DNA of 64,000 nt. Origin: a virus. Made by a program: the position numbers and the translations under genes. The stretch lies in IMG/VR virus record IMGVR_UViG_3300006310_000001, one strand, 5' to 3'. The notes below the pieces were generated by a model that was not told the origin of the DNA, made no database searches, and worked only from the letters and a program-made list of their open reading frames with translations. Below, piece after piece: positions 36,260 through 64,000 of the stretch; within the stretch, counting starts at the first letter, position 1, and every line of letters begins with the position of its first letter.

Positions 36260-39200
36260 TTACGCTACTTCTACTAATTTCCAACCATTTGTTGATCCAG
36301 TATAAACTAAAGTGAATCCTGCGTGGTTGATATCAGCAATCATATCTTGTTGTAAATTCATAATATCTTGACCATTTCTATCAACAGTTAAAGGTCTTAA
36401 TTGAAATGATCCGTTTAAATCTAAAAATACAAGTGAATCTCCTACTAGTGGACTAGCAGGCAATTTAACTGTCATTGCAAATAAACTTGTATCTATTAAT
36501 AATCTTTGTCCACCTATTGCTACAGGTACAGTTGAACCATCTCCAACTAGAGTTGTCCAAGGAGTTCCTCCAGCTAGACCTGTCCAACTTGTTCCATTAT
36601 AACCTTCCCAAGAAATTATTGAAGAATTGTATCTTAAAGCACCTGCAAATAATTCACCGCCTACAGGTCTTTGTGCTGATGTTCCTGTTGGTGGAACCCA
36701 CGCACCTGTACCTGCATTATCTCTTGTCATATAACCGACAACAGCATTTTCAGTAGGTATGGCTGTATTTGAATTACCGCCTAAAGTTGCGTCTGTACTA
36801 AATTCATTTATGGCAGCACCTAATTCTGCACCAATAGAACCAAGTTTTAATTCACTTAATCCTGAAAGGTTAAATGCGTCTGCGTTTAATGTTGCACTAC
36901 CAGTCGCTTGTTCAATTTTGAATAAATCACCAACTCTAAAGTCACCAGTTTGGTCAGTTGATACCCAATATACACGACCACCGTTAACTTCAATTACTTC
37001 ATCTGACTGGTCAGACGCTTGTAAAGGTGGTAATGGATAATTAGTTGAAGTAAAATCACCAGTACCTATATCCAAGAAATCGTGACCTGTTAAACGAATA
37101 TTTGAATATTCTTTTGTTATGTCATTTACTGTATCCTCATTTTTGGCTTTACTCAAACCAATGCTACTAGTTAATCTTATTACTGCTGTTCCAGCACTCG
37201 TATCTTCTTCTGATACTAACCCTACTCTATAAAATGTATTATCATTAGGGAATTTAACATTACTTGCTAATGCTATCATATCAACAGCATTTAAAGTTGT
37301 TGTACCTGATTTCATTGCAATCAAAGGACCCCTTTGTCCTTGTTGAGCAGCAGCTGTTCTGTTGAAAACAAAACCTGAAACGTTAACACTATTACTTGTA
37401 GCGATGGTAACTTTTTGTGAAGTACCACCAATTACATAAGTATGAGCAATTGCTGATTTATCAACACCAAAGATATATGTATTTGCGTCAGGCACATCAT
37501 AAACTTTAAATATTCCTGAACTTAATATATCATCAGGATATGCTTTACTACCTGTTGAACAAGTGAATTGCATTCCTTGTACTTGTACTAAATCATTAAC
37601 TATTAAACCGTGACCAGTTGATCCTACCGTAATAAGTCCTGTTACATTATCATAACTAGCACTACTAATTTCAGTTGCACTACCAACACTAGTTGGTGTT
37701 GCTGATTTAACTGTACCACCACTAACATAAGTATGTTCAATATCACTTGGTGCTAAAAAGAAATTTAATTTAGTAGCTGAACTAGATGATTTAACATTAA
37801 AGATTCCTGAAGTAGGTACTTGTGGATATATTTTAACTCCATATACACAACTTGTTTTAATTCCGAATAAATTTACAGTATCACTCGCTGATAATCCGTG
37901 TGTTGGTGTAGTAATTATTGCTTTACCTGTCGCTATATCATAAACAAAATTTGAAATTGATAATCTAGTACCACCAGTTTTAAGAAGTGTACCACCACTA
38001 ACATAAGATTGTGCTGTATTACTTGTTCCTAAATCAACTTGGAATGTTGTTCCTGTTAAATTTGGTGCCTCTACAGTAAATTGTGTAGTAGTAGATGATA
38101 CAGGATATGTTTTATTTCCTATAACTGTTGAATCAGAAGAAAGACAACTCAATATTACATCTGATACTTCAATTAATTCTCCAGAACTTCTTCCGTGAGC
38201 AAGTGCTGTAGTTACATCTGCGCCTGTAGAACCTGATTGACCACCAAAGTAACCATCCAAATCAACAGTAAATGTTGTTGAATCTTCTTTTGTAATTGTA
38301 ACTGTTTCACCTTGTTTAAAGTTACCAGTAATATTTTCTATATGTAAATATAGTAATGATACATTATATCTGAAAAGTGTAGCAGTTGCGCCAGATTCAC
38401 TACCTACTATTGTAGCTGTACCTTGACCTTGTACTGCAATTGAATTTTCTATATCTGAAGCAGTTGCTGTTCCACCAAAAGTATCTTTGTCCCATTGCAA
38501 CATCATACCACGAGATTTAAGATTGATAGGAACTTCTGCTTCGTTTGTACCTGAAGCAACAACACCTTGTTCTCCATATGCGTGTGAGCAGTTTAAGGCA
38601 CGAATAAATCCACCTGATTCTGCATAAACGGCTTTGTCGCAATAGTATACGAATACTGACACCGCTTCAACACGTCCATATCCTAAAATGTGAATACCAA
38701 TTCCATCTTCATTAATTTGTGTAAAGTCATTTGCCAACATTGATTTATAACTTCGTGGGAAAGGACGTAAGTGGAGATTACCGTCAATTTGAACTCCACA
38801 AGCACCTGGATTTAAAGATGTACAGTTTTGTACATAAGGTGAAGTAAGATATATATTACCAATTGGGTCTAAAGATGTAAGAGCTTGTTCGTAAGGACCA
38901 CTTGGATAAACTTTTTCTCCTAAATCACATTCAAATTTCATTTTCCCTAAAGTAACCCAATCACCTGTAGTTAAACTGTGAGAATTGCTTGTAGTAACTG
39001 TAACCCTACCGTTGGCATTATTGTAAAGAATATTAGATAATCCTAATTTAACTGATTCATTACCAACTGCTATAACGTGACCACCACTCTTATACGTATG
39101 TACAAAAGTTGATGTTCCCATTTGAACTGTAAATTCTGTTCCTGATGTTACTGTTACTTGATATAATCCTCCTGACTGTTTCTTTTCATTAAGATCCAAG

Positions 39201-42200
39201 AAAGTCATATTTCTTATATTATTTTTTTCGTTAAGTAATAACCAGTTACAAGCTTTGTTATTTTCTAATTTTTTAACTTTTAATGTTATGTCACCACCAG
39301 TACCAACATCTGCCGAGTTTAATGTAATTATATCATTAACTTCAAAATTAATACCACCGTGATAAGTTATAATTTGTGTTGCGACACCACCTGATATCAC
39401 TACGTTCCATACTGAAGCATCCCCATTTTGTGGATAAACTTTTTCTCCTTCATCACAATGATATTTTAAACCTGATAATTTGATAGTATCACTTGCTGAT
39501 AATCCGTGGTTAGTGGAAGTTGTAATTGTAATAACACCTGTACCGTGAACATATGGAGCATTTGTTACCGTAAATTTACCATAAGCGGCATTTGTAACTA
39601 TACCACCATCAACATATGAGTGTTCTCTAGGATCAGTACCTACATTGATTGTAAATGAATCAGCGGCTGGTACATCTAAAACTGTATAACTTCTTTCGGC
39701 TCTACCTTGGTGAATATAATTGTAAGCACCATCTGTTGCACCACTAGCATTTTGTAATAATTCTACTGTTGCAATTTGAGAACCTGTACCACTTGCTGGA
39801 TGTATTCTTGTATTTCTTAAACTTTCTCCAACTATTGAAACACCTTCTCTTACTCTCATTGGTAATTGTTCTGTGAAAGTACCGTTTTTAAGTCTGATTG
39901 TATCTCCTGCAGTACTCTTAACTTTAAAGTTTAAAACATTAGAACCACCAACTCGTTTATAAGTGAAAGCGTCAACAGATTTCTGTTCGCTAGTTACATA
40001 GGTAACTTTTTGAGAAGTACCACCACTTACATAAGTATGTGCAAATCCTGATTTGTCAGTACCAAAAATATATGTATTGGCGTCAACTACATTATAAACT
40101 TTAAATATTCCTGAACTAAAAGTATTATCAGGATATGTTTTACTTCCCATAGAACAAGAGAATAATATACTATCTAATTTAACTAAATCGCCATTTGCTA
40201 ATCCGTGTAAAGTAGCTGTTACTGTAATAAGTCCTGTTAGATTATCATAGACAGCATTAGTAACTGCTGATGAACTACCAACAGTTGAAACTGTTGCTAA
40301 TCTAACTGTACCACCACTAACGTAAGTATGTGCAACATCACTTGGTGGTAAAAAGAAATTTAATTCTGTAGCTGATTTTGTTGATACAACAGGATAAACT
40401 CCTGAAACTGGAACTTGTGGATAAACTTTATCACCAAATTCGCAATTTGTTTTAATTCCAAATAAGTTAACTGTATCACTTGCTGATAATCCATTCGTTG
40501 CTGTAGTAAGTACAGCTTTACCTGTCGCTATATTATAAACAAAATTTGTAACTGCTAGTCTACTGTTATCTGATTTAACAACTTCACCACCACTTACATA
40601 AGTTTGTGCAACAGTACTTGTTCCAATATCAACTTGAAATGTTGTTGTTGTTAAATTTGCTGCTTCTACTGTAAATGCTGTACTTGTTGAAATTACAGGA
40701 TATGTTTTATTTCCTGTAGGACAACTTACTAGTAAATCTCTTATTTCAACTAAATCTCCAACACTTCTAGCGTGAGGAATTGCTGTAGTTACATCTCCAC
40801 CTGTAGGACCTGTAAACCCTATATCATTACCATCAATTCTAACGCACTCATCTACTTTATGGTTAGCTGAACCGTTAACTATATCAACTTTAACAGAACC
40901 ACCTTTAGTATTAACTCTATAGAGTGATGGACCACCAACTTCTGGATATGTTTTTGCACCGTTAGAACAAGTATAATTTAATCCCCATAATCTTACTTTA
41001 TTAGTTGCTAATAATCCGTGAGCTGTAGAAGTGTGAATTGTAATAACACCTGAACCGTGAGCATATGGAGCGTTAGTTATTGTTAAAGTAGTATCATCTG
41101 CTTTTCTAACTGTACCACCACTTACATAAGTATGAGCATTGGTGTCAGTTCCCATTTGAATTTCAAAAGAATTAGCAGTTATATTATATTGACTAACTTC
41201 AAATTCTCTTGAAGAAATTCCACGAATATTATTATAAACGTCTTCCGTACCGCCGATACCACCAGACTGTTCTTTTATTTCTCTAATAGCGTGATGTTTT
41301 GCGTGTTTAACAGCATATGCTAATGTTTTATAAGGTTGACTTTCTGATCCTGAATCACCATCTACTCCTGTTGGAGAAACCCATATAACATTTTTAGCTG
41401 AATTACCAGACCATAGAACATCAAAACCATCATTAGTTAATACTGAACCTGGAAGACCTATAGGTAATCTAGCAGTACCAGCTTCGGACTGCGTAATCAT
41501 ATCACCACGAGTCTGTAATACAGCACCAGAGTCACCTAAAGCAATTCCTTGCCAAACTGTTCCATCTGTACCTGGTTCTATATTAAGAACTTGGTCTTTT
41601 AAATTAACATAAGAGTTAGAAAGATATCTAACTGTTTCACCAATATTATAAGTTGTAGATGTACTATATGCACCTGTCCATTTAAATCCTTCAACTACTA
41701 AAGACCAATAAGTTGTATTTACAATACCAGTATTTAATGAAGGTCTTTGACTTTGAGCGTCTAATACGCATACATAAGAATTACCACCATACTGAACTGT
41801 ATCACCAGTTTTGTATAATGTTCCGTGTACATAAACACCTTGTGCTTTAAAACCTGTAGTTACTACATCCCAAAACTTTTTATTTGACCGATTATAAATA
41901 AAGTTTGAAATATTTTTATCTGCGCTTGTAGTATATGAAATCTTTTGAGAAGTACCACCACTTACATAAGTATGAACAATTGCTGATTTATCAGTAGCAA
42001 CAACATATGTACTTGAATCAGGTACATCATAAACTTTAAATATTCCTGAATAGTTTGTAGTATTAGGATATGTTTTTTGTCCTGTTGAACATTCAACTAC
42101 TATACTATCTAATTTAACTAAATCATTTCTACTTAATCCGTGAGTAGCAGATGTTACTGTAATAAGTCCTGTTGCATTATCATAAGAAAAACCAGTAAGA

Positions 42201-43549
42201 GCAGTTGAACTTCCAACATTTGAAACTGTTGCTAATTTAACTGTACCACCACTTACATAAGTATGGTCAATATTACTTGGTGCTAAAAAGATACTTAATT
42301 TTGTAGCTGATGGACTTGCTTTAACAGGATAAAGTCCTGAATAAGGTGCTTGTGGATAAACTTTAGTTCCAAAAGCACAAGTTGTTTGAACTCCAAATAC
42401 ATCTATTGTATCACTTGCTGATAATCCGTGCGTTGCTGTAGTAATTACTACTTTACCAGTTGCTGTATTATAAACAAAACCTGTAATTGCTAATCTAGTA
42501 CCATTAGATTTAAGAACCGTACCACCACTAACATAAGATTGTGCAATAGCACTTGTTCCTAATTCAATTTGGAAATTAGTTGCTGTTAAATTTGTTGCCT
42601 CTACTGTAAATTGAGTAGAAGTTGAGTGTATTGGATATGTTTTCTGTCCTGTATCACATTGTACTACTATATCTCTTACTTCAATTAAATCGGAAACACT
42701 TCTTCCGTGAGCAGTTGATGTAGTAATATCTCCACCTGTTGTTTCTTGTACAGCTGGAGTTCCTGGTGTATTGCCAGAAGATTCATTTGATTGAACATAA
42801 ACATAAGAATACCCACCATAAGTTACTACATCACCTTGTTGGTAAACTGTAGCAGCGTTATAAGAATCTTCAAATTGTAAACCTTCTGAATAAACTGAAA
42901 AATTTTCTTCAGCAAAATCTGATAGAGCACCACCCGAAGTATGAGCAACAATACATTTATATTGATATGCACCAAATTTAACAACATCATCTAATTTGTA
43001 ATATGTGTTAACTTGGAAGTCGCCTTTAAATGCTAAACCTTCACTATAGATATCAAAGTTTCCTAAAACTATATTGATATCTCCACCAGCCGCTGATGTA
43101 TGTTCAGTAGTACATCTATATGTTCTACCACCATACTTAACTAGGTCGTTTAATTTGTATTGTGTACTAGAAGCATAATCACCTTTAAAAATAATACCAT
43201 CACTAAATTGTTCAAATTTAGACTGGTCTAAAACTGTGCCTGATGATGTGTATTGAGTAGTACAACGGTATTGTTTACCACCATAAGAAACTAGGTCGTT
43301 TAATTTGTACCAAGTTCCGTCAGCATATGCACCTTTAAAGTAAAATGATTCTTGGTGTAATTGCCAATATTCTGTAAATGTTCCAGGACTTGTATAAAAA
43401 TCTTGTTCTGTTGCTGGTGACGTGTGATTTTGAATACACACATAAGCATTACCACCATATTTTGCGATATCATCAATAACATAGCCAGTTGTTCCTGACC
43501 AATCGCCTCTCCATTTAAACTTTAATCGTCCTAATTTGAAATCTGCCAT
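36260..43549 (-). CDS. Giant tail fibre / receptor-binding protein (2429 aa)
   Basis: N-terminal carbohydrate-binding-like repeats (Y..DDV.YGG..Y.C...HTS), a parallel beta-helix-like core, 12 inserted ~95-aa modules and a C-terminal LPASP..GD..LTVDRNG domain. Confidence 0.75.
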   Translation of the reverse strand: MADFKLGRLKFKWRGDWSGTTGYVIDDIAKYGGNAYVCIQNHTSPATEQDFYTSPGTFTEYWQLHQESFYFKGAYADGTWYKLNDLVSYGGKQYRCTTQYTSSGTVLDQSKFEQFSDGIIFKGDYASSTQYKLNDLVKYGGRTYRCTTEHTSAAGGDINIVLGNFDIYSEGLAFKGDFQVNTYYKLDDVVKFGAYQYKCIVAHTSGGALSDFAEENFSVYSEGLQFEDSYNAATVYQQGDVVTYGGYSYVYVQSNESSGNTPGTPAVQETTGGDITTSTAHGRSVSDLIEVRDIVVQCDTGQKTYPIHSTSTQFTVEATNLTATNFQIELGTSAIAQSYVSGGTVLKSNGTRLAITGFVYNTATGKVVITTATHGLSASDTIDVFGVQTTCAFGTKVYPQAPYSGLYPVKASPSATKLSIFLAPSNIDHTYVSGGTVKLATVSNVGSSTALTGFSYDNATGLITVTSATHGLSRNDLVKLDSIVVECSTGQKTYPNTTNYSGIFKVYDVPDSSTYVVATDKSAIVHTYVSGGTSQKISYTTSADKNISNFIYNRSNKKFWDVVTTGFKAQGVYVHGTLYKTGDTVQYGGNSYVCVLDAQSQRPSLNTGIVNTTYWSLVVEGFKWTGAYSTSTTYNIGETVRYLSNSYVNLKDQVLNIEPGTDGTVWQGIALGDSGAVLQTRGDMITQSEAGTARLPIGLPGSVLTNDGFDVLWSGNSAKNVIWVSPTGVDGDSGSESQPYKTLAYAVKHAKHHAIREIKEQSGGIGGTEDVYNNIRGISSREFEVSQYNITANSFEIQMGTDTNAHTYVSGGTVRKADDTTLTITNAPYAHGSGVITIHTSTAHGLLATNKVRLWGLNYTCSNGAKTYPEVGGPSLYRVNTKGGSVKVDIVNGSANHKVDECVRIDGNDIGFTGPTGGDVTTAIPHARSVGDLVEIRDLLVSCPTGNKTYPVISTSTAFTVEAANLTTTTFQVDIGTSTVAQTYVSGGEVVKSDNSRLAVTNFVYNIATGKAVLTTATNGLSASDTVNLFGIKTNCEFGDKVYPQVPVSGVYPVVSTKSATELNFFLPPSDVAHTYVSGGTVRLATVSTVGSSSAVTNAVYDNLTGLITVTATLHGLANGDLVKLDSILFSCSMGSKTYPDNTFSSGIFKVYNVVDANTYIFGTDKSGFAHTYVSGGTSQKVTYVTSEQKSVDAFTYKRVGGSNVLNFKVKSTAGDTIRLKNGTFTEQLPMRVREGVSIVGESLRNTRIHPASGTGSQIATVELLQNASGATDGAYNYIHQGRAERSYTVLDVPAADSFTINVGTDPREHSYVDGGIVTNAAYGKFTVTNAPYVHGTGVITITTSTNHGLSASDTIKLSGLKYHCDEGEKVYPQNGDASVWNVVISGGVATQIITYHGGINFEVNDIITLNSADVGTGGDITLKVKKLENNKACNWLLLNEKNNIRNMTFLDLNEKKQSGGLYQVTVTSGTEFTVQMGTSTFVHTYKSGGHVIAVGNESVKLGLSNILYNNANGRVTVTTSNSHSLTTGDWVTLGKMKFECDLGEKVYPSGPYEQALTSLDPIGNIYLTSPYVQNCTSLNPGACGVQIDGNLHLRPFPRSYKSMLANDFTQINEDGIGIHILGYGRVEAVSVFVYYCDKAVYAESGGFIRALNCSHAYGEQGVVASGTNEAEVPINLKSRGMMLQWDKDTFGGTATASDIENSIAVQGQGTATIVGSESGATATLFRYNVSLLYLHIENITGNFKQGETVTITKEDSTTFTVDLDGYFGGQSGSTGADVTTALAHGRSSGELIEVSDVILSCLSSDSTVIGNKTYPVSSTTTQFTVEAPNLTGTTFQVDLGTSNTAQSYVSGGTLLKTGGTRLSISNFVYDIATGKAIITTPTHGLSASDTVNLFGIKTSCVYGVKIYPQVPTSGIFNVKSSSSATKLNFFLAPSDIEHTYVSGGTVKSATPTSVGSATEISSASYDNVTGLITVGSTGHGLIVNDLVQVQGMQFTCSTGSKAYPDDILSSGIFKVYDVPDANTYIFGVDKSAIAHTYVIGGTSQKVTIATSNSVNVSGFVFNRTAAAQQGQRGPLIAMKSGTTTLNAVDMIALASNVKFPNDNTFYRVGLVSEEDTSAGTAVIRLTSSIGLSKAKNEDTVNDITKEYSNIRLTGHDFLDIGTGDFTSTNYPLPPLQASDQSDEVIEVNGGRVYWVSTDQTGDFRVGDLFKIEQATGSATLNADAFNLSGLSELKLGSIGAELGAAINEFSTDATLGGNSNTAIPTENAVVGYMTRDNAGTGAWVPPTGTSAQRPVGGELFAGALRYNSSIISWEGYNGTSWTGLAGGTPWTTLVGDGSTVPVAIGGQRLLIDTSLFAMTVKLPASPLVGDSLVFLDLNGSFQLRPLTVDRNGQDIMNLQQDMIADINHAGFTLVYTGSTNGWKLVEVA
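37365..42743 (-). repeat. Three ~285-aa repeat blocks (about 41885-42743, 39955-40806 and 37365-38229) plus single modules inside the giant fibre gene
   Basis: Recurring HG...C-x-x-G-x-K-x-YP...HTYVSGG motifs; near-identical DNA GTACCACCACT(T/A)AC at about 37713, 37989, 40017, 40308, 41112, 41952, 42243 and 42519. Confidence 0.85.
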
Positions 43550-52657: not shown

Positions 52658-52682
52658 AATAAATAGTCTAGTATTATTTATA
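52658..52682. promoter_or_regulatory. Crossed divergent late promoters between the two arms of the island
   Basis: TATAAATA on the minus strand (52675-52682) and the variant AATAAATA on the plus strand (52658-52665); AATAAATA also occurs at the gene junctions 36250 and 44217. Confidence 0.65.
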
Positions 52683-53560
52683 TGAGTATGAAAAGAGCAA
52701 TTTACAGTATCTACATTGATGTGCCAGCGAAAGAGCATTATGGTAAATCAAAGCATAGAAAAGACACAGCAGAAAAGGCAATCATAACCGTTAATGCATT
52801 TAAAAAGCACTATAAAAGGTTAATTGAATCCAAACGCAACTATGCTGACACCATAGGTGCAACTTTTATTATGTTTGAATATGATAAACGTTATCAAACC
52901 TTTGAAAAAAATCTACGTAAAGACTTTCCAGAATTAACAGGTTATGAAATTGTAAATTTTTACAAGATACATTTACTATATGAACTAGCAAAAAAATATG
53001 ATGAAATTTTATATTTAGATTTTGATGCTGTACCTGTAACCAAAGATTCCTTTTTTGATATATGGGATATACAAAATCATATTGCTGTTTATAATAACAA
53101 TACTATGATTAATAAAATGATGATGAGTATAGATGAAATTAAACACGGCATTAGAAGTCCAACAGCAAAGTATTTTAATTGTCAAGCAATGCTTATAGAG
53201 AAAGGACTTGATCCTAAAAATGATGTTATCAATACTGGTATCATTGGTGCTTCAAAAGAACAAATTTTAAAATTAGATTTCTTTGGTGATTTTAAAGATA
53301 CAATAGATTTAATGACAAAATTAAGAAATGATAAAGATGGTATGTATCCACAAAATATTATTGATATGTTTAGATATGATAATGAAACAATCTTTTCATA
53401 TAAAGTAAATATAAATAAAATTGGTATACAATGGTTAGATAGAAGGTGGCATTACTTCTTTGATAGTCAACATTTTATACCAAAAGAAACAAAAATAGTA
53501 CACGCTGTCTGCAAAGACTTTGACGCCGTATGGAGATATGATGAAAAATATAATCTATAG
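52682..53560 (+). CDS. GT-A-fold glycosyltransferase-like protein
   Basis: YKIHLLY, ILYLDFDAVP (DxD), INTGIIG, WHYF, IVHAV. Confidence 0.65.
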   Translation: MSMKRAIYSIYIDVPAKEHYGKSKHRKDTAEKAIITVNAFKKHYKRLIESKRNYADTIGATFIMFEYDKRYQTFEKNLRKDFPELTGYEIVNFYKIHLLYELAKKYDEILYLDFDAVPVTKDSFFDIWDIQNHIAVYNNNTMINKMMMSIDEIKHGIRSPTAKYFNCQAMLIEKGLDPKNDVINTGIIGASKEQILKLDFFGDFKDTIDLMTKLRNDKDGMYPQNIIDMFRYDNETIFSYKVNINKIGIQWLDRRWHYFFDSQHFIPKETKIVHAVCKDFDAVWRYDEKYNL

Positions 53561-54398
53561 TATATACATAGAAAATAATGAACCTAATTTAAGTGAAAAA
53601 CATCAATTCACTAAAATACAATTAGCAAAACACTATCAAAAATTAATAGATGTTAAGAAAGAATATGCTAAGCATTGTAATGCTGAATATAGACTTTATG
53701 AAAACGACACCTATTGGCAAAAATTTAAAAAGAAATTTAGTGGTTATCAATTTGATATAATCAATCTATACAAGATACATATATGGGAAAAACTAGGTGA
53801 AGAATTTGACAATGTTCTTTATTTTGATTTTGATGTAGTACCAAATACAACTGAATCCTTTTTTGAAAAGTTTGATATGAATAAGATATGTGTTCACGCT
53901 CCCAATGCAACTAAAGAAAATATATGGAGTACAAGCGCATTAAAACGTTATAAGAAACAAATAAACACATATGAGGAAATAGTTAGCAATTTTGATGGAT
54001 ATAGTATGTACGTTAAAGCTATTGCTAAAAAATCAATGTTAGCATTAGATAACAATTTTGATACGGATTATTTAATAGCAAATACAGCTATATTAGGTGG
54101 CAATTCAAATGCTATAAAACAATTAAAATATACAGAAAAATTAGATGAACTTTTAGATGTTTTATATACAGCAAAAAAAGAAAAACTATTTGGAGAAGAA
54201 ATATCAAAACAATTTTTTCCTAACAATGAAGTCTTTTTCCATTATCTATTAGACAAGTATAATATAAATTGGTATAATATACCTAAAGAATGGCACACTT
54301 ATGTAATGCCAGAAGATGAACACACTAAAGAATTAAAATCTGCTAAACTAATACATTTAATTAGTAAGAAATTTGAAAAGTTATGGGAGATAATATAA
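53520..54398 (+). CDS. GT-A-fold glycosyltransferase-like protein, paralogue of the upstream gene
   Basis: YKIHIWE, VLYFDFDVVP, ANTAILG, NNEVFF, EWHTY, LIHLI. The true start is probably the ATG near 53538 after GGAG. Confidence 0.65.
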   Translation: MTPYGDMMKNIIYSIYIENNEPNLSEKHQFTKIQLAKHYQKLIDVKKEYAKHCNAEYRLYENDTYWQKFKKKFSGYQFDIINLYKIHIWEKLGEEFDNVLYFDFDVVPNTTESFFEKFDMNKICVHAPNATKENIWSTSALKRYKKQINTYEEIVSNFDGYSMYVKAIAKKSMLALDNNFDTDYLIANTAILGGNSNAIKQLKYTEKLDELLDVLYTAKKEKLFGEEISKQFFPNNEVFFHYLLDKYNINWYNIPKEWHTYVMPEDEHTKELKSAKLIHLISKKFEKLWEII

Positions 54399-55519
54399 TG
54401 TGGATATTTCCTATTGATTTAAAACTTGATATTACAACTAGATGTAATGCTGGATGTCCTCAATGTCATAGAACAAACTTAACTGGATTAAAAGCACACG
54501 AATGGTTACCAGATATTGTATGGTCTTTAGACCAATTTAAAAGAGCTTTTCCTGTACAAGTTGCTAAACACATTTATAATTATAATATTTGTGGTACGTG
54601 GGGAGACCCTTTAACAAATAATGACTTACTAGATATAGCAAGATATATTAGACAAGTAAATCCAGAAGCACATATTTCTATTAATACAAATGGTTCATTA
54701 AGAAATGAAGATTGGTGGTGGGAGTTTGGATCAATAGGAGGTAAAAACCTACACGTTGTTTTTGCTGTTGAAGGCACCACACAAAAAATGCACGAAAGAT
54801 ATAGACAGTTTACTTTTTTGGATAAAATTTTAAAAAATATGGAGATGTTATCTAACACTCCAGCAAGAATACGAGTTGATACTTTAGTATGGAAACATAA
54901 TGAAAATCATTTAGATGAAATTGAAAAATTAGTTATGGATCACGGAGCAACCAAACACAACAGAATTTTAACTGACCGTTGGGAAGGTCGTAATGAAATG
55001 ACTTTTTTTACTGGAAAAGAAACTGCAAGTTTAGAAAAAGCTGGTGTTGATTTTTCAAAAGAAGAAGAGACCTATAACAAACGTGAAGCAGATTGTTTTA
55101 CAGATGATGAAGGTAGAGAAAAAAAAGTTGGTGACTTTACTAAACAAACAACAAAATTAACAGTACTAGATAGTAAAATGGTTAAAAAAATAAGAAAAGA
55201 AAAAAAAGAAATAATAGATATAACTTGCAAATGGCAAAAAGCAAATAAACTTGAAATTGAATCAAGTGGTCAAGTTTTACCTTGCTGTTATTTCTCTAAT
55301 CCTTATTTTTTAGATGAACACAATCCTTCTAAAGAAAGTGATTTTATGAAACATCCAGTTATGAAAGAATATGAAAAATATAAAAAAGAACTTAATATTT
55401 TTACTTCTAGTTTACTAGATATAATAAATCATAAATGGTATACAGAAACATTACCTAATAGTTGGAATGATGTTAATGCTGTATGGCAATGCCAAAGACA
55501 TTGTGGAAAGTGTAAATGA
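54383..55519 (+). CDS. Radical SAM enzyme with a C-terminal SPASM/twitch-like Cys domain
   Basis: DITTRCNAGCPQC, CGTWGDP, INTNGS, GQVLPCCY, CQRHCGKC. Likely start is the ATG at 54398 (TAATG). Confidence 0.85.
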   Translation: MGDNIMWIFPIDLKLDITTRCNAGCPQCHRTNLTGLKAHEWLPDIVWSLDQFKRAFPVQVAKHIYNYNICGTWGDPLTNNDLLDIARYIRQVNPEAHISINTNGSLRNEDWWWEFGSIGGKNLHVVFAVEGTTQKMHERYRQFTFLDKILKNMEMLSNTPARIRVDTLVWKHNENHLDEIEKLVMDHGATKHNRILTDRWEGRNEMTFFTGKETASLEKAGVDFSKEEETYNKREADCFTDDEGREKKVGDFTKQTTKLTVLDSKMVKKIRKEKKEIIDITCKWQKANKLEIESSGQVLPCCYFSNPYFLDEHNPSKESDFMKHPVMKEYEKYKKELNIFTSSLLDIINHKWYTETLPNSWNDVNAVWQCQRHCGKCK

Positions 55520-56286
55520 TATACGATTTCTCAAATAGAAAAATTAATATAGACTCTAGTCATAAGTGTCCTTTAGAGTGTCCTAAATGTCAAAGACAAG
55601 CAATAAGAAGAACTGGACATCCAGTACCTGGACAAGATATGCCGTGGGATGATTTTATAAAAATTGCTAATTACTTTGAAAAGGGACTACTTTTTTGTGG
55701 TCAAATATCAGACCCTACTGCTAATCCTTTATTGATTAATATGTTAAAATATTGTTACAAAAAAAATATTCCAGTAACGATTAATACAGCATCCACACAC
55801 AAACCTGTAAAATGGTATGAAAAGGCATTTGAAGCAAACCCTAAAGGAGTTTGGTTGTTTGGTATTGATGGTCTACCTAAAGATAGTCACAAATATAGAA
55901 TTCATCAAGATGGTGAAAAATTATTTGAAATGGCAAAGTTATGTGCTAAAAAATGTAAAACTTCTGTTTGGCAATATATTGTTTTCAGATATAATGAATA
56001 TGATATAGAAGAAGCAAGAAGTATGGCAAAGGCAAACAATATTGAATTTGATTTAGTTTTTTCAGGTCGTTGGCATTACGGTGGTGACAAATATAAACCT
56101 AGAAATCCAAATTACTATGTTAACCGTTATAATGATGATTTACGAATGTTTAAAAATATAAAAAATAAAGGTTATAAAGATTGGAAAGTAGCATTAGATG
56201 AATTAAAAGATGAAAGATTTTTTAAAAATACACATAGTCCTAAAAAAACAATTTTATCAACTAGGAAAATAAATGAAAAAGATTAA
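55516..56286 (+). CDS. Radical SAM enzyme lacking a SPASM domain
   Basis: DSSHKCPLECPKC, CGQISDP, FGIDG, WQYIVFRYNE. Confidence 0.8.
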   Translation: MIYDFSNRKINIDSSHKCPLECPKCQRQAIRRTGHPVPGQDMPWDDFIKIANYFEKGLLFCGQISDPTANPLLINMLKYCYKKNIPVTINTASTHKPVKWYEKAFEANPKGVWLFGIDGLPKDSHKYRIHQDGEKLFEMAKLCAKKCKTSVWQYIVFRYNEYDIEEARSMAKANNIEFDLVFSGRWHYGGDKYKPRNPNYYVNRYNDDLRMFKNIKNKGYKDWKVALDELKDERFFKNTHSPKKTILSTRKINEKD

Positions 56287-57358
56287 TCCAAAATGTTTAT
56301 CGTTTAAAGAACTTTCTTATACAGCAACTGGTTATATAATGCCTTGTTGTTGGGTAGACACTCCTATAGCTTTAATAGAACCTCAAATAGCAAGATTAAG
56401 ACAAAAACATTTAAAACTTGCAAATAACGAAAAGATAGAAGATATTATTAATAGTAAAGAATGGAAAAACTTTTTTGAAGAATTAAAAACTAATCCAGCT
56501 ACACTTTGCCAAAGATTTTGTAGTGTACCTTTACATCATAGTGCTAATAGAGCAAGAGAAAACCCACACGACAAATACGCACTTACAGAAGATAGAAAAA
56601 CTAATATTAAAATATGTTGTGTTTATTTTGAAGGAAAATATTCACCTGATTATGTTGAAAAACTTTATAATGGATTAAAAAAATATTGTTTCCTACCATT
56701 TGAATTTATTTGTTATAGCGATAATCCAAATGTTAAAGCAGATAAAGTTATTCCTTTACCAAAAGATAGTAAAATAAAACGCCATTGGCATAAATTATCT
56801 TTCTTTAATCCAGAATTTATGGAACAAAATCCTAGAGATGAAATTATTATTATGGATATTGACCAGATTATTGTAAATAATATGGATGATTTAATAGGTT
56901 GGCCTGTAGTAGATAATGAATTAGTATCTTATGACAAATGGTGGGGATTACCAAAACCAAAAGTTCAAGGCGGTTTCTTTAAATTTAAATCTGGACAATG
57001 TAAAGTTATATGGGATACTTTTATAAAAGATCCAGAAAAATGGCAACTACATTATTATAATACAGGACAAGTACATTACAAATATTTTGGTGAACAAAAC
57101 TTTGTTGAAGATATAGCAACTAAAAATGATATAATAATATCTTTAGTTAAAGGTAAATGGATTGGTAAATATACTTTAGATAAAGAACAAAATTTAGAAA
57201 ATAATGTAGAGTATTGTAAAAGATTTGAAGAAGATTATATGATATTAGATAAACCACATCCTAATATAAAAATAGTACACTTTGCTGGACCCGAAACTGA
57301 TATACACTCTTGTAAAGAAGAATGGATTAAATCTTATTGGTATCTTCCCAAAGTTTAA
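56273..57358 (+). CDS. Fusion of an N-terminal SPASM-like Cys domain and a C-terminal glycosyltransferase-like domain
   Basis: PKC...GYIMPCCW...LCQRFC followed by CCVYFEGKYSPDYVEKLY, WHKLSFF, MDIDQII (DxD), GEQNF, IVHFAG. Confidence 0.7.
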   Translation: MKKINPKCLSFKELSYTATGYIMPCCWVDTPIALIEPQIARLRQKHLKLANNEKIEDIINSKEWKNFFEELKTNPATLCQRFCSVPLHHSANRARENPHDKYALTEDRKTNIKICCVYFEGKYSPDYVEKLYNGLKKYCFLPFEFICYSDNPNVKADKVIPLPKDSKIKRHWHKLSFFNPEFMEQNPRDEIIIMDIDQIIVNNMDDLIGWPVVDNELVSYDKWWGLPKPKVQGGFFKFKSGQCKVIWDTFIKDPEKWQLHYYNTGQVHYKYFGEQNFVEDIATKNDIIISLVKGKWIGKYTLDKEQNLENNVEYCKRFEEDYMILDKPHPNIKIVHFAGPETDIHSCKEEWIKSYWYLPKV

Positions 57359-57824
57359 TATAAATTTTAAGTGCTTCTAAAGGAGTTTTTGCTTTTCTAA
57401 TAGCAGATTTTGTACTTTGGTCTTTACAATTCTTTACTACATCTTGTTCAAACAAATATATTTTAAAATTGAATAAACGGTCTATATGTTCTTTCTTATT
57501 ACTTAAAAGAAAATCCATCATCAACTCAATAAATTTAGGATTAACCTCTTCTATTATATCTTTAATAAGACCTTCTTTTTGTGCTATATTTTTAATTTGA
57601 CTAATATAAGCTTTTCGTTCTTCTTGTTTTTTAGTATAAGTATTTTCGTGAAGTTGGTCTAAAGAACAAAGTTTTAATAACTCTTGACAATTTGGATTGT
57701 CAACATCATATTCAAGTATATGTGGATTGACTGCTGTTCCGTCATCACTTTTTAATAATACTTCAATATTTTTTCTTTCATTATCTATGAAATGTGCTGT
57801 TATAAAATTTTCTTCATTAATCAT
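57327..57824 (-). CDS. Hypothetical protein, possibly a fibre assembly factor
   Basis: 165-aa ORF with an AGGAG SD; its 3' end overlaps the plus-strand operon by 32 bp. Confidence 0.6.
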   Translation of the reverse strand: MINEENFITAHFIDNERKNIEVLLKSDDGTAVNPHILEYDVDNPNCQELLKLCSLDQLHENTYTKKQEERKAYISQIKNIAQKEGLIKDIIEEVNPKFIELMMDFLLSNKKEHIDRLFNFKIYLFEQDVVKNCKDQSTKSAIRKAKTPLEALKIYIKLWEDTNKI

Positions 57825-57840
57825 AATATACTCCTATAAT

Positions 57841-58770
57841 TTACGATTTTAATATTTTCAAATACCAAGTATTTGCTGTTGTAGGTGTACCATTTGGAAA
57901 CTCTTGCGCTCTATAATCATCTCCACCCGCTTGATGTGTTTGATAATCTCCTGTACCTGTCAGTATTGTATCTGCCATACCAGAACCTCTATTTACTCCA
58001 CTTGCATAACTATAAGTTATTTTATAACCATCTACTGAAGCAGCGGCAGTATATTTAATATGACTTGCTAATAATGTTTCAAAAGCAACTTCTGTAAAAT
58101 CTTGTAAATCATTTCCACCAGTTACATAAAGCGGACTTCTTGTTATAGTAGTATCAACACCATCTACTCTATGCAAATAATAACTTGCAATTGTTGTAGG
58201 TTGGTCTAAATCTTCAGGAATATCTCCAGCAGCATAAGCAGTTGTATCTGCTTGAGTATTTACATAAATTGGTGTTGCGTTAACTAAAGTAGAACCTGCA
58301 ACACTATTTGAAGCATTAATATGATATGTTCCAGCTTGTTCACTTGTTGTGGTCGCCGCTGTCAATAAATCAATAGCAGGATGTATAAATGTATCTTTAA
58401 CATCTTGTAAAGACATTGCTTGAATATCATTACCTGCTGTTCTATAGACAGGCCAACTTTTTCCTGAATCAGTTGGTGCTGAACCAGAGGTTACAGTTTG
58501 CTCTATTTTATCGTAAGTAATAGTTACCGTTGTAGGTTCTGGTGTTGTTGCTTCATTTGGAAATGCTGAAGCGTGTGTTAACATAGCACCCGCTTGTTGT
58601 CTTGTATCAGTTATTGATCCTACGTTTCCGCCAGAACCTACTACTGATAATACAACAGATGGTGTTTGTGAATATTGATAAATTGCTTGTGCTATTATTT
58701 GGTCTACTTCGGCAGAAGACATCTCTTTCAAATTGCCGCCGCTATAATATAAAGGAGCTCGTATAGCCAT
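57841..58770 (-). CDS. Probable virion structural protein with three internal repeats
   Basis: Repeats APLYYSGGNLKEMS / WPVYRTAGNDIQAMS / SPLYVTGGNDLQDFT; Thr/Ala-rich. Confidence 0.6.
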   Translation of the reverse strand: MAIRAPLYYSGGNLKEMSSAEVDQIIAQAIYQYSQTPSVVLSVVGSGGNVGSITDTRQQAGAMLTHASAFPNEATTPEPTTVTITYDKIEQTVTSGSAPTDSGKSWPVYRTAGNDIQAMSLQDVKDTFIHPAIDLLTAATTTSEQAGTYHINASNSVAGSTLVNATPIYVNTQADTTAYAAGDIPEDLDQPTTIASYYLHRVDGVDTTITRSPLYVTGGNDLQDFTEVAFETLLASHIKYTAAASVDGYKITYSYASGVNRGSGMADTILTGTGDYQTHQAGGDDYRAQEFPNGTPTTANTWYLKILKS

Positions 58771-58781
58771 AATTAAATCTC

Positions 58782-59714
58782 CTATGTAGCACTACCAACA
58801 ATCGTCTTTTGCGCTACTCCCGCTGAATTGTAGATTACTAAAGTTGATGAAGATGTAAAAATAGTACCATCAGCATATCCTGTCGTATTAGTTAAAGCAA
58901 CTGTTCCTGTTGAGTCAGGTAATGTTACTATTCTTTCTGCTGTAGGGTCTGTAGGTCTTATATATGTTTTAAATGCGTCATTTGTTGCACCTTCAAAATA
59001 AATACCTAAATTGCTATTTGCACCTGTTAAGTAAATAGCCCCACTTGTTGTTATATTATTTGTTGATATATGACTACCACCAAAATTAACACTATCTCCT
59101 GTGCGAGCAGTAATAGTATTTGTTTTTAATCCACCTTCAATTTGAACATCATCATCAAAATGAAGTACAGTAGAATCTGTAGATGAAAATGTATTACCAA
59201 CTACTGAAACTGTTCCTAAAGTATTCGTCCCACCTGTAGTTGTAATAGTCGGCGCTGTGATATTATTTGCTTGTATGTCACCAGTTGTTATTATATGGTC
59301 ATCTCCAAAATCTATAGAACCACTTGAATCTGTAATAGAACCATTTGTTAAAGTTAAACTTCCTGCAGATACAATTGGAGCTGATAAAGAAGTAGTAATA
59401 TTAACAACATTTGTTAAACCAATTGTTAAAATATCTGGAACAGATACAACAGCAGTTGTTTGGTTTGAAACACCTTTAAATTGAGCAGTTTGACCTGCAC
59501 CAATTTGCTGTACAGTTGAAGAAGAATCTTCCATCTTCCAACCTTCAGCAGCAAAAATTTGACTAGCTAATTCATTAACTGCACCAATAACACTAGTTGC
59601 CGACATTGAAGGGTCTAAAGTTCCAATATCTCCAAAATCATTTAGACACATATCGTTAAAATTTGTTCTAAATTGTTCTAGTGTATCTGTTAATGCTATA
59701 TTTCTTACAGCCAT
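58782..59714 (-). CDS. Fibre-like virion protein
   Basis: TDTLEQFRTNFN N-terminus; Thr/Ser/Gly-rich; FEGATNDAF..PTDPTAERIVTLPD module. Confidence 0.6.
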   Translation of the reverse strand: MAVRNIALTDTLEQFRTNFNDMCLNDFGDIGTLDPSMSATSVIGAVNELASQIFAAEGWKMEDSSSTVQQIGAGQTAQFKGVSNQTTAVVSVPDILTIGLTNVVNITTSLSAPIVSAGSLTLTNGSITDSSGSIDFGDDHIITTGDIQANNITAPTITTTGGTNTLGTVSVVGNTFSSTDSTVLHFDDDVQIEGGLKTNTITARTGDSVNFGGSHISTNNITTSGAIYLTGANSNLGIYFEGATNDAFKTYIRPTDPTAERIVTLPDSTGTVALTNTTGYADGTIFTSSSTLVIYNSAGVAQKTIVGSAT

Positions 59715-59715
59715 T

Positions 59716-59937
59716 TTATTTTATAACCTTCTTAATTAAATCTTTTATTTCTCTTAATTCTTTCTTTAAATTATTTATCTCGGAACACATACCTCTTAAT
59801 TGGTCTGCATTCTCTTCTCTTTGTCTTATTCTTTTCATATAGATAGCATATTCATTACTTGTTCTTACTATAGCATTAGTACTTATATCTCTAACTAAAT
59901 TTGAGTGTCCTTCAACTTTCAATATTCCGTTTGCCAT
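59716..59937 (-). CDS. Conserved small hypothetical protein
   Basis: LKVEGHSNLVRDISTNAIV followed by a coiled coil. Confidence 0.6.
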   Translation of the reverse strand: MANGILKVEGHSNLVRDISTNAIVRTSNEYAIYMKRIRQREENADQLRGMCSEINNLKKELREIKDLIKKVIK

Positions 59938-59941
59938 TTTA

Positions 59942-62900
59942 TTATATCGCCAATGCTACTGTTCTCATATCTCTTACAATTGGAGGATATGATGAGATAG
60001 ACCCTTTCATTACTATTTTAATTTGTAAAGATGTAAATGGATTTAAACTAGCTACTGAATATTTGTATTCTCTAAATGTTGTGTCATCTTCAGCAGGTGT
60101 TACTGTTGTATCTTCCGAACCATCTGTATTAAATGGTGTCCAAGATAAATCTTCAATCTTTCTATCATCTTCTGGTCCTAATGTTCTATGATAAACTTGT
60201 ACTACTGAACTTGACCTAACATTTGAAGTCAATCTAACGTCTAAAGAAGTTGATGAATTTTCTAATACTACAGGTTTAGTTAAATAAAGAGCAGCTGTAG
60301 ATGAACCAGTTGAAGCAATATCATCAACAAAATCTGGTGTATTACCAGAAGTTGGATTATTTAATCTATTTGAAATCATAAAAGCACTCATTCGTTGTGT
60401 ATCTAAAACTGGTGAAACTTTTGTATTAGTAGTTAAAAGTTTTAAATTTAACCAAAAAGATTTTTGACCTGACATTTCATTTGTTTCATTTATTTCACTC
60501 ATTACAGCTTTTGGATTGTTAAAGTGTACATTTTCAGAATTAACAACAGCAACTTTATTTGCCGTTGAAGTTAAACTAAATTCTGATTCTGCACCGTGCA
60601 TTGATTGTCCAGTAGTTGGTCTAATATACCATTCAATACTTGTACCAGGTAATTTCATTGTTTGAACACCTGATAAATTCATTACATCATATTTTCTATT
60701 TTGTGTTGCAGTTACAGTATTGCTTCCAATATCACCAGTAGCAGTTGCTGTTCCAGCTGTTGTAATATCATAACTATCTAGGGTTACATTTGAAATACTT
60801 GTATATGTTCCATTTAAATCAGTATGAGCAATACCATTATAGGTACCAGCCGACACTCCTGCAATGGTCACATTATTTGATGTGCCGTGCATTCCGTGAT
60901 TTGGATGATAAACTCTAACTACACCTGAAGCATTTGTTGTTCGTAATGGATTAAGTTTAAGTGTTCTAGCAGGTAAAGTATTATTTGTCAACATAACATC
61001 TCCAGTTACATTTTCAAATTCTGCTCTCTTCAATGTAAATTTAATATCTTCGTTTTGTTCAGTTGTCCAAGTCACACCATTTTGTGATTTAAACATTACA
61101 CCAGCATATGGTTGTGCTGATATTGTTCTATCTGAACCTATTACAGTTTCTCCCAATCTACCAACATAACAATTGTAATCAGTTGAGTTTGCCATTAATA
61201 CAAAAGAATATTCTGTATTTTCTTGTACATAAACAGGACTTGCAAAAGTAAATGTAGTTTTAACTGTTGCGTCAGCACTTATATTAACTGAAGGTGGATT
61301 TAATGATACTTCACTAAACGGTAATATATTTTGTCCTGGATAACCATTTACAGTATTTCTAATTTGTAAAGTTAAAGGTACATTAGCGTCTTTAGAACTG
61401 AAAAATAAATCCATAGATGTTAAGAAAACACCTCCAGCGTCATCAATCATAAATGTTTGTGCTAATGGATCGTGATAACCAACTTGTCTAGCTGCCCCTC
61501 GTTGGACATCCGTTCTAGTTACATTTTCTGTTTCATTAGTTGCTCTAAATTCTATAGCAGCTGTTCTTGTAGAAATAATTGTATTTTGTACTGTTTCTAT
61601 AATACCTCTAGCAATATATTCAGCATTAGCAGCTGTATCTGGTGCTTGTGTTAAAACGTTTGTAGATGAACTTGTTAATCTAAAAATTCTTTGACCTGTT
61701 CGCCATCTTGGATTTGAATTTACTTTTGGATCAGGTATTGCAAAAGTTCCCGTTACAGCACCGTTAGCATCCGTGACAAGATTACCACCTAAAGAACCAC
61801 CATCTGGTGTTATGTAAGTAGATATATCATCACTATCAAAGAAAGCATAAACTCTTGTATTTGGTCTCATTCTTGTAGCAGTAAATGATACTGTTCTACT
61901 TCTAATAAACGGAACAAATGCTACACTTATAATTCTATCACCAATACTATTTGTTATTGTTTTTGGAACTATTACTTGTCTAATTCCTGCTCTTGTTCTT
62001 GTTCCAGTTTGAGTAGTTGTTTGGATATCTCTTTGCATTACTCTCCAACCGTGACCACCTCTTTGTTCAAAATTTTCTGTAGTATTAGTTGTTGATGTTC
62101 CAGTCCAATTATTTGTCCACTCGTTCCATACTGTACCTATCTCTACTTCTTGAAGATTTGGATTACCAGAAACAGCAACTAAAGTATCCCAAGTACCATC
62201 ATCATTTGTAATTGTTAATTCTGGTGCTCTTTCTGTTTCTTTCCATTCATCATTTGCTGGTGTTAATGCAATTGAACCTATCCAAGTAAATATTCCAAAT
62301 GGGTTAACATTAATTGATTTACTTGCATACGGTTGAGTTATTAAAGCAGTTTCACTATAAGGTAATGTAATTAAATCTCCAGTTTTTTGGTATTGTCCAT
62401 CCGTTCTATCAGCGGCAACAATAGCTGTACCATCACCATCACGTTCAATAAGTTGAATAGCATCCTCGTGGAATGTTGGTCTCATTTCACCTTTCGCCAT
62501 ATCCATTGAAACTTTATAATCTACATTTCCTGGGTCACCTATTGCGTGTCCTGTAAAATTATCTACAACAAATCCATTTTTAAATCTATCAAATCCATCA
62601 GCGTCTTGTATTTGTAATGTTTGAGCAGCAACTTCTAATAAAGACAATTGAGTATAATATTCAACATTTGTTATTCTTCTTTCTAAATGTCCAATATCTC
62701 TCATTGTATATCTTCGGTTGTCAACTGTTTCTATACTAACATCAGCTGTATCTAATCCATAACTTGGTAAAAATAAAGTGTACATATGCATAGCATTATC
62801 TAAAGAACCAGGAACATCTGGTGTTGCTGAACTTGCACCACTCAATACTTGAAATTTTCCAGCTGAATCTAAATATATTTTATCAACTCTTTGTAAATAA

Positions 62901-64000
62901 TATTCAAAATCGGATGTTATGTCTGTACCAAATTTAACTGAATCAACTGTAGAAGCACCTACACCGTCATATGAACGGTCTTGGCTACCTGAATTTATTG
63001 TTGAAGCGTCATCAACTCTTGGTCTGAAATCTAAAGTATCTCTTAATTCAAATCTTTCATTAGTTGTTGATGATTCGTATGCTGGTATATTTTCATAATC
63101 AACAATACCTGAATAAGAGTCTACATCAAAATAATCTCCAGAACCGTGAGAGAAGTAATCAAAATTAACTAGTAATCTTCCTGTTGGTGTTAATGCACCA
63201 TTTTTTAATTTAATTCTTCCAATGTCATAGAAGTTATCTCTTTGTCCTGTATCTAAATCAAATCTATCTGTAATATCTGTATCACCAGCAATAGCATTTG
63301 TAGAAAAATCTGCTGCCATATAAATGTTATTAATTTTATAAACATCTGCTCTACCTAATCCACATACACCAGATTCAACAGTTGCTTGTGTAGCAATTTG
63401 TACTGTTTGTGCTGAATTTAATGTTTTAGTTTTAGAACTTGCAACTGAACGATTAACTGTTGCTAATATTTTTACTTTATGTCCTGCATAATTAGTACCA
63501 AAATTTAATGTTAAAGTTTTACCAGTTGGAGAACCTGCTAAAGTAAATATTGTTTGTGCTAAATGGTTAGTACCACTTAAACTTAATATATCTGATACTG
63601 CACCAGCACTACCACCACCAGTTGTCATAATAGAAACAGTAAAGTCTGATTCTTTTAATCCACTAAATGTTTCATTTGTTCCTGCTGTAATTGAAGCGTC
63701 ACCATTACCTGATAATGTTGCTGTGAAATGTCTTCTAATTGCAAAATTTGTATCTGTTATTCCTGAATTAACAGTTGTCTTTAATGTCTTAATAGTTTCA
63801 TAAGGCATTTTAAAGATAGAAATATTTTTACCTGGTTCTTTTACTGCACCACGTCCTCTAGTAAAAGATGATTTGGTAACATCAGCACCTGCACCTAAAG
63901 TTACTGCAAAACTTGTATCATTAATAACATAGGCTACTTCATTTGTTTCTGCAAGAGGAGTATTTGTTATATATGTAATTTTATCTCCAATTTTTAATTC
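59942..64000 (-). CDS. Large baseplate/tail structural protein, 5' end outside the window
   Basis: The frame stays open from 63808 to 64000 (hand-translated ELKIGDKITY...), so the ORF-track start is internal. DGFDRFKNGFVVDNF, NVNPFGIF and DPLAQTF motifs are typical of large T4-like aquatic phage virion proteins. Confidence 0.75.
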   Translation of the reverse strand, partial: ELKIGDKITYITNTPLAETNEVAYVINDTSFAVTLGAGADVTKSSFTRGRGAVKEPGKNISIFKMPYETIKTLKTTVNSGITDTNFAIRRHFTATLSGNGDASITAGTNETFSGLKESDFTVSIMTTGGGSAGAVSDILSLSGTNHLAQTIFTLAGSPTGKTLTLNFGTNYAGHKVKILATVNRSVASSKTKTLNSAQTVQIATQATVESGVCGLGRADVYKINNIYMAADFSTNAIAGDTDITDRFDLDTGQRDNFYDIGRIKLKNGALTPTGRLLVNFDYFSHGSGDYFDVDSYSGIVDYENIPAYESSTTNERFELRDTLDFRPRVDDASTINSGSQDRSYDGVGASTVDSVKFGTDITSDFEYYLQRVDKIYLDSAGKFQVLSGASSATPDVPGSLDNAMHMYTLFLPSYGLDTADVSIETVDNRRYTMRDIGHLERRITNVEYYTQLSLLEVAAQTLQIQDADGFDRFKNGFVVDNFTGHAIGDPGNVDYKVSMDMAKGEMRPTFHEDAIQLIERDGDGTAIVAADRTDGQYQKTGDLITLPYSETALITQPYASKSINVNPFGIFTWIGSIALTPANDEWKETERAPELTITNDDGTWDTLVAVSGNPNLQEVEIGTVWNEWTNNWTGTSTTNTTENFEQRGGHGWRVMQRDIQTTTQTGTRTRAGIRQVIVPKTITNSIGDRIISVAFVPFIRSRTVSFTATRMRPNTRVYAFFDSDDISTYITPDGGSLGGNLVTDANGAVTGTFAIPDPKVNSNPRWRTGQRIFRLTSSSTNVLTQAPDTAANAEYIARGIIETVQNTIISTRTAAIEFRATNETENVTRTDVQRGAARQVGYHDPLAQTFMIDDAGGVFLTSMDLFFSSKDANVPLTLQIRNTVNGYPGQNILPFSEVSLNPPSVNISADATVKTTFTFASPVYVQENTEYSFVLMANSTDYNCYVGRLGETVIGSDRTISAQPYAGVMFKSQNGVTWTTEQNEDIKFTLKRAEFENVTGDVMLTNNTLPARTLKLNPLRTTNASGVVRVYHPNHGMHGTSNNVTIAGVSAGTYNGIAHTDLNGTYTSISNVTLDSYDITTAGTATATGDIGSNTVTATQNRKYDVMNLSGVQTMKLPGTSIEWYIRPTTGQSMHGAESEFSLTSTANKVAVVNSENVHFNNPKAVMSEINETNEMSGQKSFWLNLKLLTTNTKVSPVLDTQRMSAFMISNRLNNPTSGNTPDFVDDIASTGSSTAALYLTKPVVLENSSTSLDVRLTSNVRSSSVVQVYHRTLGPEDDRKIEDLSWTPFNTDGSEDTTVTPAEDDTTFREYKYSVASLNPFTSLQIKIVMKGSISSYPPIVRDMRTVALAI

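Follow-up and report, generated by a model that had tools for sequence, protein, structure and literature searches.

We analysed a 64,000-nucleotide stretch of viral DNA (IMG/VR record IMGVR_UViG_3300006310_000001, hereafter the window), whose source is a T4-like phage of SAR11-type bacteria with Pelagibacter phage Mosig as its closest isolate. Five plus-strand genes occupy positions 52682-57358, each abutting or overlapping its neighbour downstream. We concentrate here on the last two, open reading frame 2 (ORF2), which encodes a radical S-adenosylmethionine (SAM) core, and ORF3, which joins a Cys-containing domain to a glycosyltransferase (GT), and on their relation to the radical SAM gene that precedes them (ORF1). 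The features concerned are the following.

54383-55519, plus strand: ORF1, a complete radical SAM protein with a SPASM domain in cis (Pfam Radical_SAM 37.3 bits, SPASM 24.8 bits, both above cutoff).
55516-56286, plus strand: ORF2, a radical SAM core only, 256 residues, with the motif CPLECPKC.
56273-56286, plus strand: 14-nt overlap of the ORF2 stop and the ORF3 start, with ORF3 in the +1 frame and AGGA 6 nt upstream of its ATG.
56273-57358, plus strand: ORF3, Cys domain, linker and GT, 361 residues, with its own ATG.
56273-56557, plus strand: Twitch/SPASM-like Cys domain, ORF3 residues 1-95, with C8, G20, C25, C26, C79 and C83.
56558-56602, plus strand: interdomain linker, ORF3 residues 96-110, of variable length (alignment A1).
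56603-57358, plus strand: predicted GT8-like domain of GT-A fold, ORF3 residues 111-361, with D195-I-D197 and H336.

The CX3CX2C motif of ORF2 comprises C18, C22 and C25, which are invariant in 30 homologues. Pfam Radical_SAM (PF04055) is marginal on ORF2 itself (29.7 bits, cutoff 29.5) and is present in many of the homologues. No Cys occurs beyond residue ~146 of ORF2, so that auxiliary cysteines are absent from its C-terminal part. The radical SAM core of a homologue with ~52% identity (P0150, alignment A2) was modelled with a predicted local distance difference test (pLDDT) score above 90, and Foldseek matched this core to SuiB, viperin, BlsE, anSME and DesII (E 1e-7 to 1e-5), indicating a partial (beta/alpha)6 barrel. 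These structural neighbours mix radical SAM enzymes that act on sugars or nucleotides (BlsE, DesII, viperin) with peptide-modifying ones. Members of the core family are overwhelmingly 200-260 residues long, and ORF1 and the ORF2 core share ~19% identity, as distant paralogues. The tail of ORF2 (56100-56286, residues ~195-256) is Lys-rich and is the counterpart of the linker in cis-fused forms; the total length of the protein is 232-274 residues in close relatives and ~206 in distant ones.

The Cys domain at the start of ORF3 has the spacing C8-x11-G20-x4-C25-C26 ... C79-x3-C83. Across 29 full-length relatives of ORF3, residues C8, G20, P24, C25, C26, W27, D29, C79 and C83 are invariant. In a broader set of 58 sequences of this module (~30-77% identity), P6, C8, P24, C25, C26, W64 and C79 remain invariant and G20 and C83 are kept in at least 90%, while the Pfam SPASM profile (PF13186) matches 34 of the 58 at E<0.01. 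Comparison with the SPASM domain of ORF1 gave 29% identity over 90 residues by BLASTP (E 3e-4), and the profile of the module family aligned to the same domain with 95% probability (hhalign, E 3e-8). In the AlphaFold model of ORF3, a β-hairpin (residues 14-24, strands 14-16 and 22-24) is followed by helices. Model and alignment together place C8 before the hairpin, C25 and C26 after it, and C79 and C83 after the helices. This is the layout of Twitch ligands, with one Cys before a β-hairpin, one after it and two after the helices (PMC6231123).

The seven-Cys SPASM motif is CX9-15GX4C-gap-CX2CX5CX3C-gap-C, of which Twitch is the half that holds one cluster (PMC6231123). The ORF3 domain has the first block alone; CX2CX5CX3C is absent, and five cysteines are conserved. 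Since this leaves two clusters unlikely, the domain is better labelled Twitch-like, with one predicted cluster, than a full SPASM domain. Radical SAM enzymes with SPASM domains, such as anSME, PqqE and SuiB (PF13186), share with the module the profile similarity and the CX9-15GX4C half, present as C8-x11-G20-x4-C25. They differ from the arrangement here in that the domain is encoded in trans, whereas ORF1 next door is an ordinary cis radical SAM-SPASM enzyme. The Twitch enzymes BtrN, SkfB and MoaA have in common with the present system the barrel, the hairpin-flanking Cys and two Cys after a helix, a set sufficient to hold a single auxiliary cluster (PMC6231123). BtrN, BlsE and DesII act on sugars, and the latter two were structural matches of the core. 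Unlike its counterpart in the Twitch enzymes, which extends the core at its C terminus, the module of the window and of most relatives is made from a gene of its own or belongs to a GT; a CC pair and CX3C spacing also set it apart, and it has no significant sequence match to solved structures. Profiles of the core and of the free mini-protein form of the module retrieved nothing significant from the PDB sequences, the nearest being BtrN at E 0.95. In systems of the PqqE/PqqD type an accessory module is likewise free or fused to the radical SAM protein, depending on the genome. The mobile accessory module of PqqE/PqqD and similar radical SAM systems is, however, a peptide-binding recognition element (RRE) and not an Fe-S auxiliary domain. 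A literature search found no paper describing a free-standing SPASM or Twitch protein.

The remainder of ORF3 is predicted from sequence and model to be a GT8-like GT-A glycosyltransferase domain. Residues ~111-361 match PHROG 1962, 'glycosyltransferase' (E 3e-16), with no Pfam match for residues 111-361, Glyco_transf_8 (PF01501) included. The ORF3 model (pLDDT 80.9) superimposes on GT8 enzymes with VIA Z scores of 17.3 for GlyE (root-mean-square deviation 3.1, 218 residues), 16.4 for LgtC, 16.3 for LARGE1 and 16.3 for glycogenin, and Foldseek assigned the GT part to a GT-A Rossmann-like fold at E about 1e-7. Hits of the wide structural search with the ORF3 model were filled by GTs, so it is informative on the GT part alone. 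The DxD motif D195-I-D197 and H336 are invariant in the 29 sequences. Thus, the domain would share with the retaining enzymes GlyE, LgtC, glycogenin and LARGE1 the GT-A fold (Z 16-17 over ~210-220 residues), the DxD motif and a late conserved His, and differ from them in its low identity (~13-16%) and in the additional N-terminal domain of predicted Fe-S type. The two domains are joined by a poorly ordered segment, with pLDDT below 50 for residues 84-109. Median dN, a rough NG86 estimate, is 0.23 for the module, 0.26 for the GT domain and 0.73 for the linker, about three times that of the flanking domains; dS is oddly low in this AT-rich DNA, and we used the NG86 values only to contrast the domains with the linker.

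These results agree with the initial annotation, which had described a radical SAM core that ends without auxiliary cysteines and, overlapping it by 14 nt, an ORF that begins with a domain like that of ORF1 and continues into a DxD GT. Its term 'SPASM-like' stands for the family, by profile comparison, and does not extend to a full SPASM domain.

We then compared domain arrangements across 80 IMG/VR loci, Mosig and 8 genome contigs. In each of the 25 distinct loci whose core homologue reaches 40% identity, the module lies directly 3′ of the core. It starts at an ATG of its own every time, overlaps the core gene by 0, 1, 4, 7, 8, 11, 14 or 23 nt, and is in frame 0, +1 or +2 relative to it (frame 0 being a TAA and then an ATG in locus L002). 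Core and free mini-protein occur with the GT elsewhere in Mosig (gp84/gp85), L055, L076 and L077, and as three adjacent genes with the GT, separated by stop/start overlaps of 1-4 nt, in L013 and L025. Core and mini-protein form a single chain in L019, where the GT follows, and in P0150 and P0156. The order is permuted in P0291 and P0327, metagenome proteins of 335 and 346 residues with the predicted Fe-S-type module at the N terminus. The lineage of the window has the core followed by the module-GT fusion, and in L065 the module after the core is joined to a different GT-like family, a paralogue of the first. Searching exhaustively with the 100-residue domain gave 314 clusters at 50% identity; the best 150 of these comprise 129 free proteins of at most 170 residues, mostly with 5-6 Cys, 13 core-module chains, 2 permuted chains and 1 cluster representing the GT fusion. 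The split between core and Fe-S domain thus appears from these sequences to be the old and usual state throughout the family, with the free mini-protein of ~100 residues as its commonest form. Two candidates were set aside: P0242, which ranked first in the representative search, proved to be a spurious translation of tandem repeats, and homologues in Campylobacter phage CP220 (26% identity), considered as a model of the split, are annotated at 326-342 residues and not evidently split.

The fusion in L065 (4378-5307; also in L066, L068 and L081) joins the module to a different, shorter GT-like domain with a DLD motif. This second domain is free-standing in L004 (4722-5297), L013 (4085-4690) and L017 (3744-4334). 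The L065 protein is 37% identical to the free L004 homologue and aligns with the GT family of the window at 99% probability (hhalign), and it apparently represents a second, independent fusion event.

By its Atlas neighbours the core family is restricted to phages, and a scan of 185,579 species genomes with the core alignment found it on 8 marine contigs from metagenome-assembled genomes (MAGs) alone, which are probably mis-binned phage DNA. Contigs L087 and L088 (174 and 228 kb, labelled Hyphomicrobiales MAGs), L086 and L089-L092 come from bacterial MAGs and bear the phage core/mini-protein cassette; they probably represent phages whose genomes were binned with bacteria.

The fusion in ORF3 is no assembly artefact. 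The full-length architecture recurs in about 30 protein clusters (58-89% identity), and fusions of this type are found at 8 distinct IMG/VR loci and on one MAG contig (L086). All sampled words of 55400-57400 are present in 20 public sequencing runs from at least 4 studies. Contigs from 4 studies span this interval with 0 differences and 0 gaps; this DNA may itself derive from one of these contigs. The initial annotation had asked whether the fusion recurs and whether reads around the junction confirm it, since a lost stop or sequencing error might have made it unique to one assembly; it does recur, and the contigs are identical across the junction.

The GT-domain tree groups the fused forms in one subclade, with three-gene and core-mini/GT forms as neighbours, and at least three changes of state are required. 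Inside the fused subclade, L017 has the GT directly after the preceding radical SAM gene and the core/mini-protein pair is cleanly absent. Comparison of L017:1857-3768 with L013:1141-4109 reveals that the L017 GT starts in the overlap with the preceding radical SAM gene that the core uses in L013. Core and mini-protein genes thus behave like one two-gene cassette, gained or lost whole, and the GT can do without them. The three-gene loci (L013, L025) look like evolutionary intermediates, and the fusion to the GT would be a later, lineage-restricted step between adjacent genes.

We propose, with a probability of roughly 0.6, that ORF2 and the N-terminal domain of ORF3 are one radical SAM enzyme split into two chains, whose Twitch-type subunit is tethered to the neighbouring GT. 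ORF2 would give the S-adenosylmethionine-cleaving [4Fe-4S] barrel. The next gene would give the Twitch-type domain, ordinarily a C-terminal extension of the same chain, and we infer that it binds one auxiliary Fe-S cluster. The overlapping stop and start codons point to translational coupling of the core and module genes. The fusions in both orders, the strict adjacency and the joint gain and loss argue that the module is the auxiliary domain of the core, supplied in trans; action in trans is plausible because intermolecular electron transfer has been shown for the auxiliary cluster of PapB (PMC10470005). In most related marine phages the predicted Fe-S module is a free protein of ~100 residues, and in the lineage of the window it would have been joined to the GT8-like enzyme immediately downstream when the short stop/start junction was lost. 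Provided that docking on the core persists, this fusion would set the radical enzyme beside the GT. A sugar, in the form of the nucleotide-sugar donor or of the residue being transferred, could then undergo radical modification and transfer within a single complex, as part of a glycan-building cassette in the host-recognition island of pelagimyophages. Two different GT paralogues have taken up the module, which suggests that it has a functional connection with sugar transfer.

Several points weigh against this proposal. The SPASM profile is marginal on the ORF3 domain, with 17.3 bits when ORF3 is scored entire and 21.7 when the domain is scored by itself (cutoff 21.5). The AlphaFold model of the P0150 cis fusion places the module poorly (pLDDT 34-79). 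Median dN/dS is higher in the module (0.48) than in the GT domain (0.31), so the module is the less constrained of the two, by an estimate that AT-rich DNA makes unreliable. Hundreds of relatives have the GT by itself, and L017 has it without the core/mini-protein pair; because of L017 the coupling between radical SAM enzyme and GT is not obligatory. The initial annotation had read the fusion as a Rosetta stone linking radical chemistry to sugar transfer. That reasoning is strongest for the core and the Fe-S domain, which occur as one polypeptide in both orders, and weaker for the GT. Given these GTs without the pair, its further view that the island is a single pathway is suggested at most.

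The fusion could also be a tolerated by-product of gene adjacency in a compact genome. The Fe-S module would then serve ORF2, and its attachment to the GT, by loss of the stop between overlapping neighbours, would be a neutral accident. The 1-4-nt junctions of the three-gene intermediates, the variable, unconstrained linker, the presence of the GT without the pair in L017 and the three or more state changes on the GT tree are all as expected from such an accident. The same module has nevertheless been captured by two different GT-like paralogues, and the fused form persists over deep divergence with the key residues of both domains invariant, which makes an accident unlikely. A little less probable again is that the Cys-rich domain belongs to the GT as a structural metal site or small electron carrier, without docking on ORF2, its position reflecting ancient descent from a radical SAM-SPASM protein. 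The stability of the GT fusion across 58-89% identity fits this, as does the capacity of PapB auxiliary clusters to act by intermolecular electron transfer (PMC10470005). Set against it, all 25 loci have the module right after the core, core and module disappear together, core fusions in both orders occur in at least 13 clusters, and most copies of the module are free, with no GT attached.

Two other explanations are much less probable. SCIFF-type peptides are short, Cys-rich and encoded beside a radical SAM gene. The small Cys-rich ORF has the same properties and might by that token be a substrate, a precursor peptide resembling those of peptides that are made on the ribosome and modified after translation (RiPPs). 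We regard this as very unlikely, as the ORF is matched both by the SPASM profile and by the SPASM domain that ORF1 has in cis, occupies the position of an auxiliary domain in natural cis fusions and is predicted to fold as a hairpin plus helices. Least probable of all is that core, Fe-S domain and GT are one protein, divided by a sequencing or assembly error or expressed through programmed frameshifting or read-through. A-rich runs flank the junction, and in L002 the core and module are separated only by an in-frame TAA. However, the contigs of four studies are identical, and no triple fusion of ~600 residues occurs among matches of up to 632 residues. Close relatives have the module in frame 0, +1 or +2, each with its own ATG; this varying frame relation rules out sequencing error and programmed frameshifting, and the latter was rejected as a candidate.

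The two genes upstream of ORF1 complete the five-gene operon.

52682-53560, plus strand: operon gene 1, GT8-like glycosyltransferase (Pfam Glyco_transf_8, E 1.3e-6, 28.6 bits, cutoff 24.3).
53520-54398, plus strand: operon gene 2, GT-like paralogue, no Pfam match.

The product of the first is homologous to Mosig_00091. The true start of the second is more likely an internal ATG, and its homologue is kept beside radical SAM genes in L003 and L004. A scan for promoters and terminators gave signal at chance level. The five-gene island lies in a hypervariable host-recognition cluster of the pelagimyophage type, with tail fibres, GT8 genes and radical SAM cassettes, the cassettes being gained and lost between close genomes (Zaragoza-Solas et al. 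2020, PMC7029224). The split radical SAM enzyme and the Fe-S/GT fusion are not mentioned in the passages of that paper that were consulted.

Fibre-like giant ORFs (2429 and 1288 residues) and two fibre-like genes of ~310 residues flank the enzyme island (36260-43549 and 57841-63808); one of the flanking fibre-like genes matches a PHROG tail-fibre family, which fits a host-recognition cluster. At its 3′ end ORF3 overlaps, tail to tail by 32 nt (57327-57358), a minus-strand ORF of 165 residues (57327-57824). This ORF is conserved and has no family match; the same layout is found in L003, and a homologue lies downstream in L004. Relatives also have a third radical SAM gene, of 382-407 residues, between the ORF1-type and ORF2-type genes (L003:2139-3287, L013:1141-2364, L017:1857-3023), whose product is rich in Cys near its N terminus (YKLCCHA...) and has the motif CNLxCYMC. 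The window has none.

The roles of SPASM and Twitch auxiliary clusters are still debated (PMC10470005, PMC6231123). Here the auxiliary domain is a separate natural protein, so that the core can be assayed with and without it and no protein engineering is needed. That it occurs by itself, joined to the core at either end, or as part of a GT indicates that the module is an independently folding, portable unit of predicted Fe-S type. Since two GT paralogues have captured it, a physical connection of radical chemistry with glycan assembly can be put to the test, in a host-recognition island that is rich in radical SAM and GT genes and belongs to phages abundant in the ocean. The split of the radical SAM enzyme, here with a GT-fused helper domain, is frequent in related phages and seems not to have been described; it is relevant to both radical SAM enzymology and phage glycobiology. 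More tentatively, and at lower odds than the two-chain enzyme itself, we suggest that marine T4-like phages may encode a family of two-subunit radical SAM enzymes with a dissociable Twitch Fe-S subunit of ~100 residues, which in some lineages has been built into a GT8-like GT, so that one complex would make a radically modified sugar and attach it to virion or host-surface glycans.

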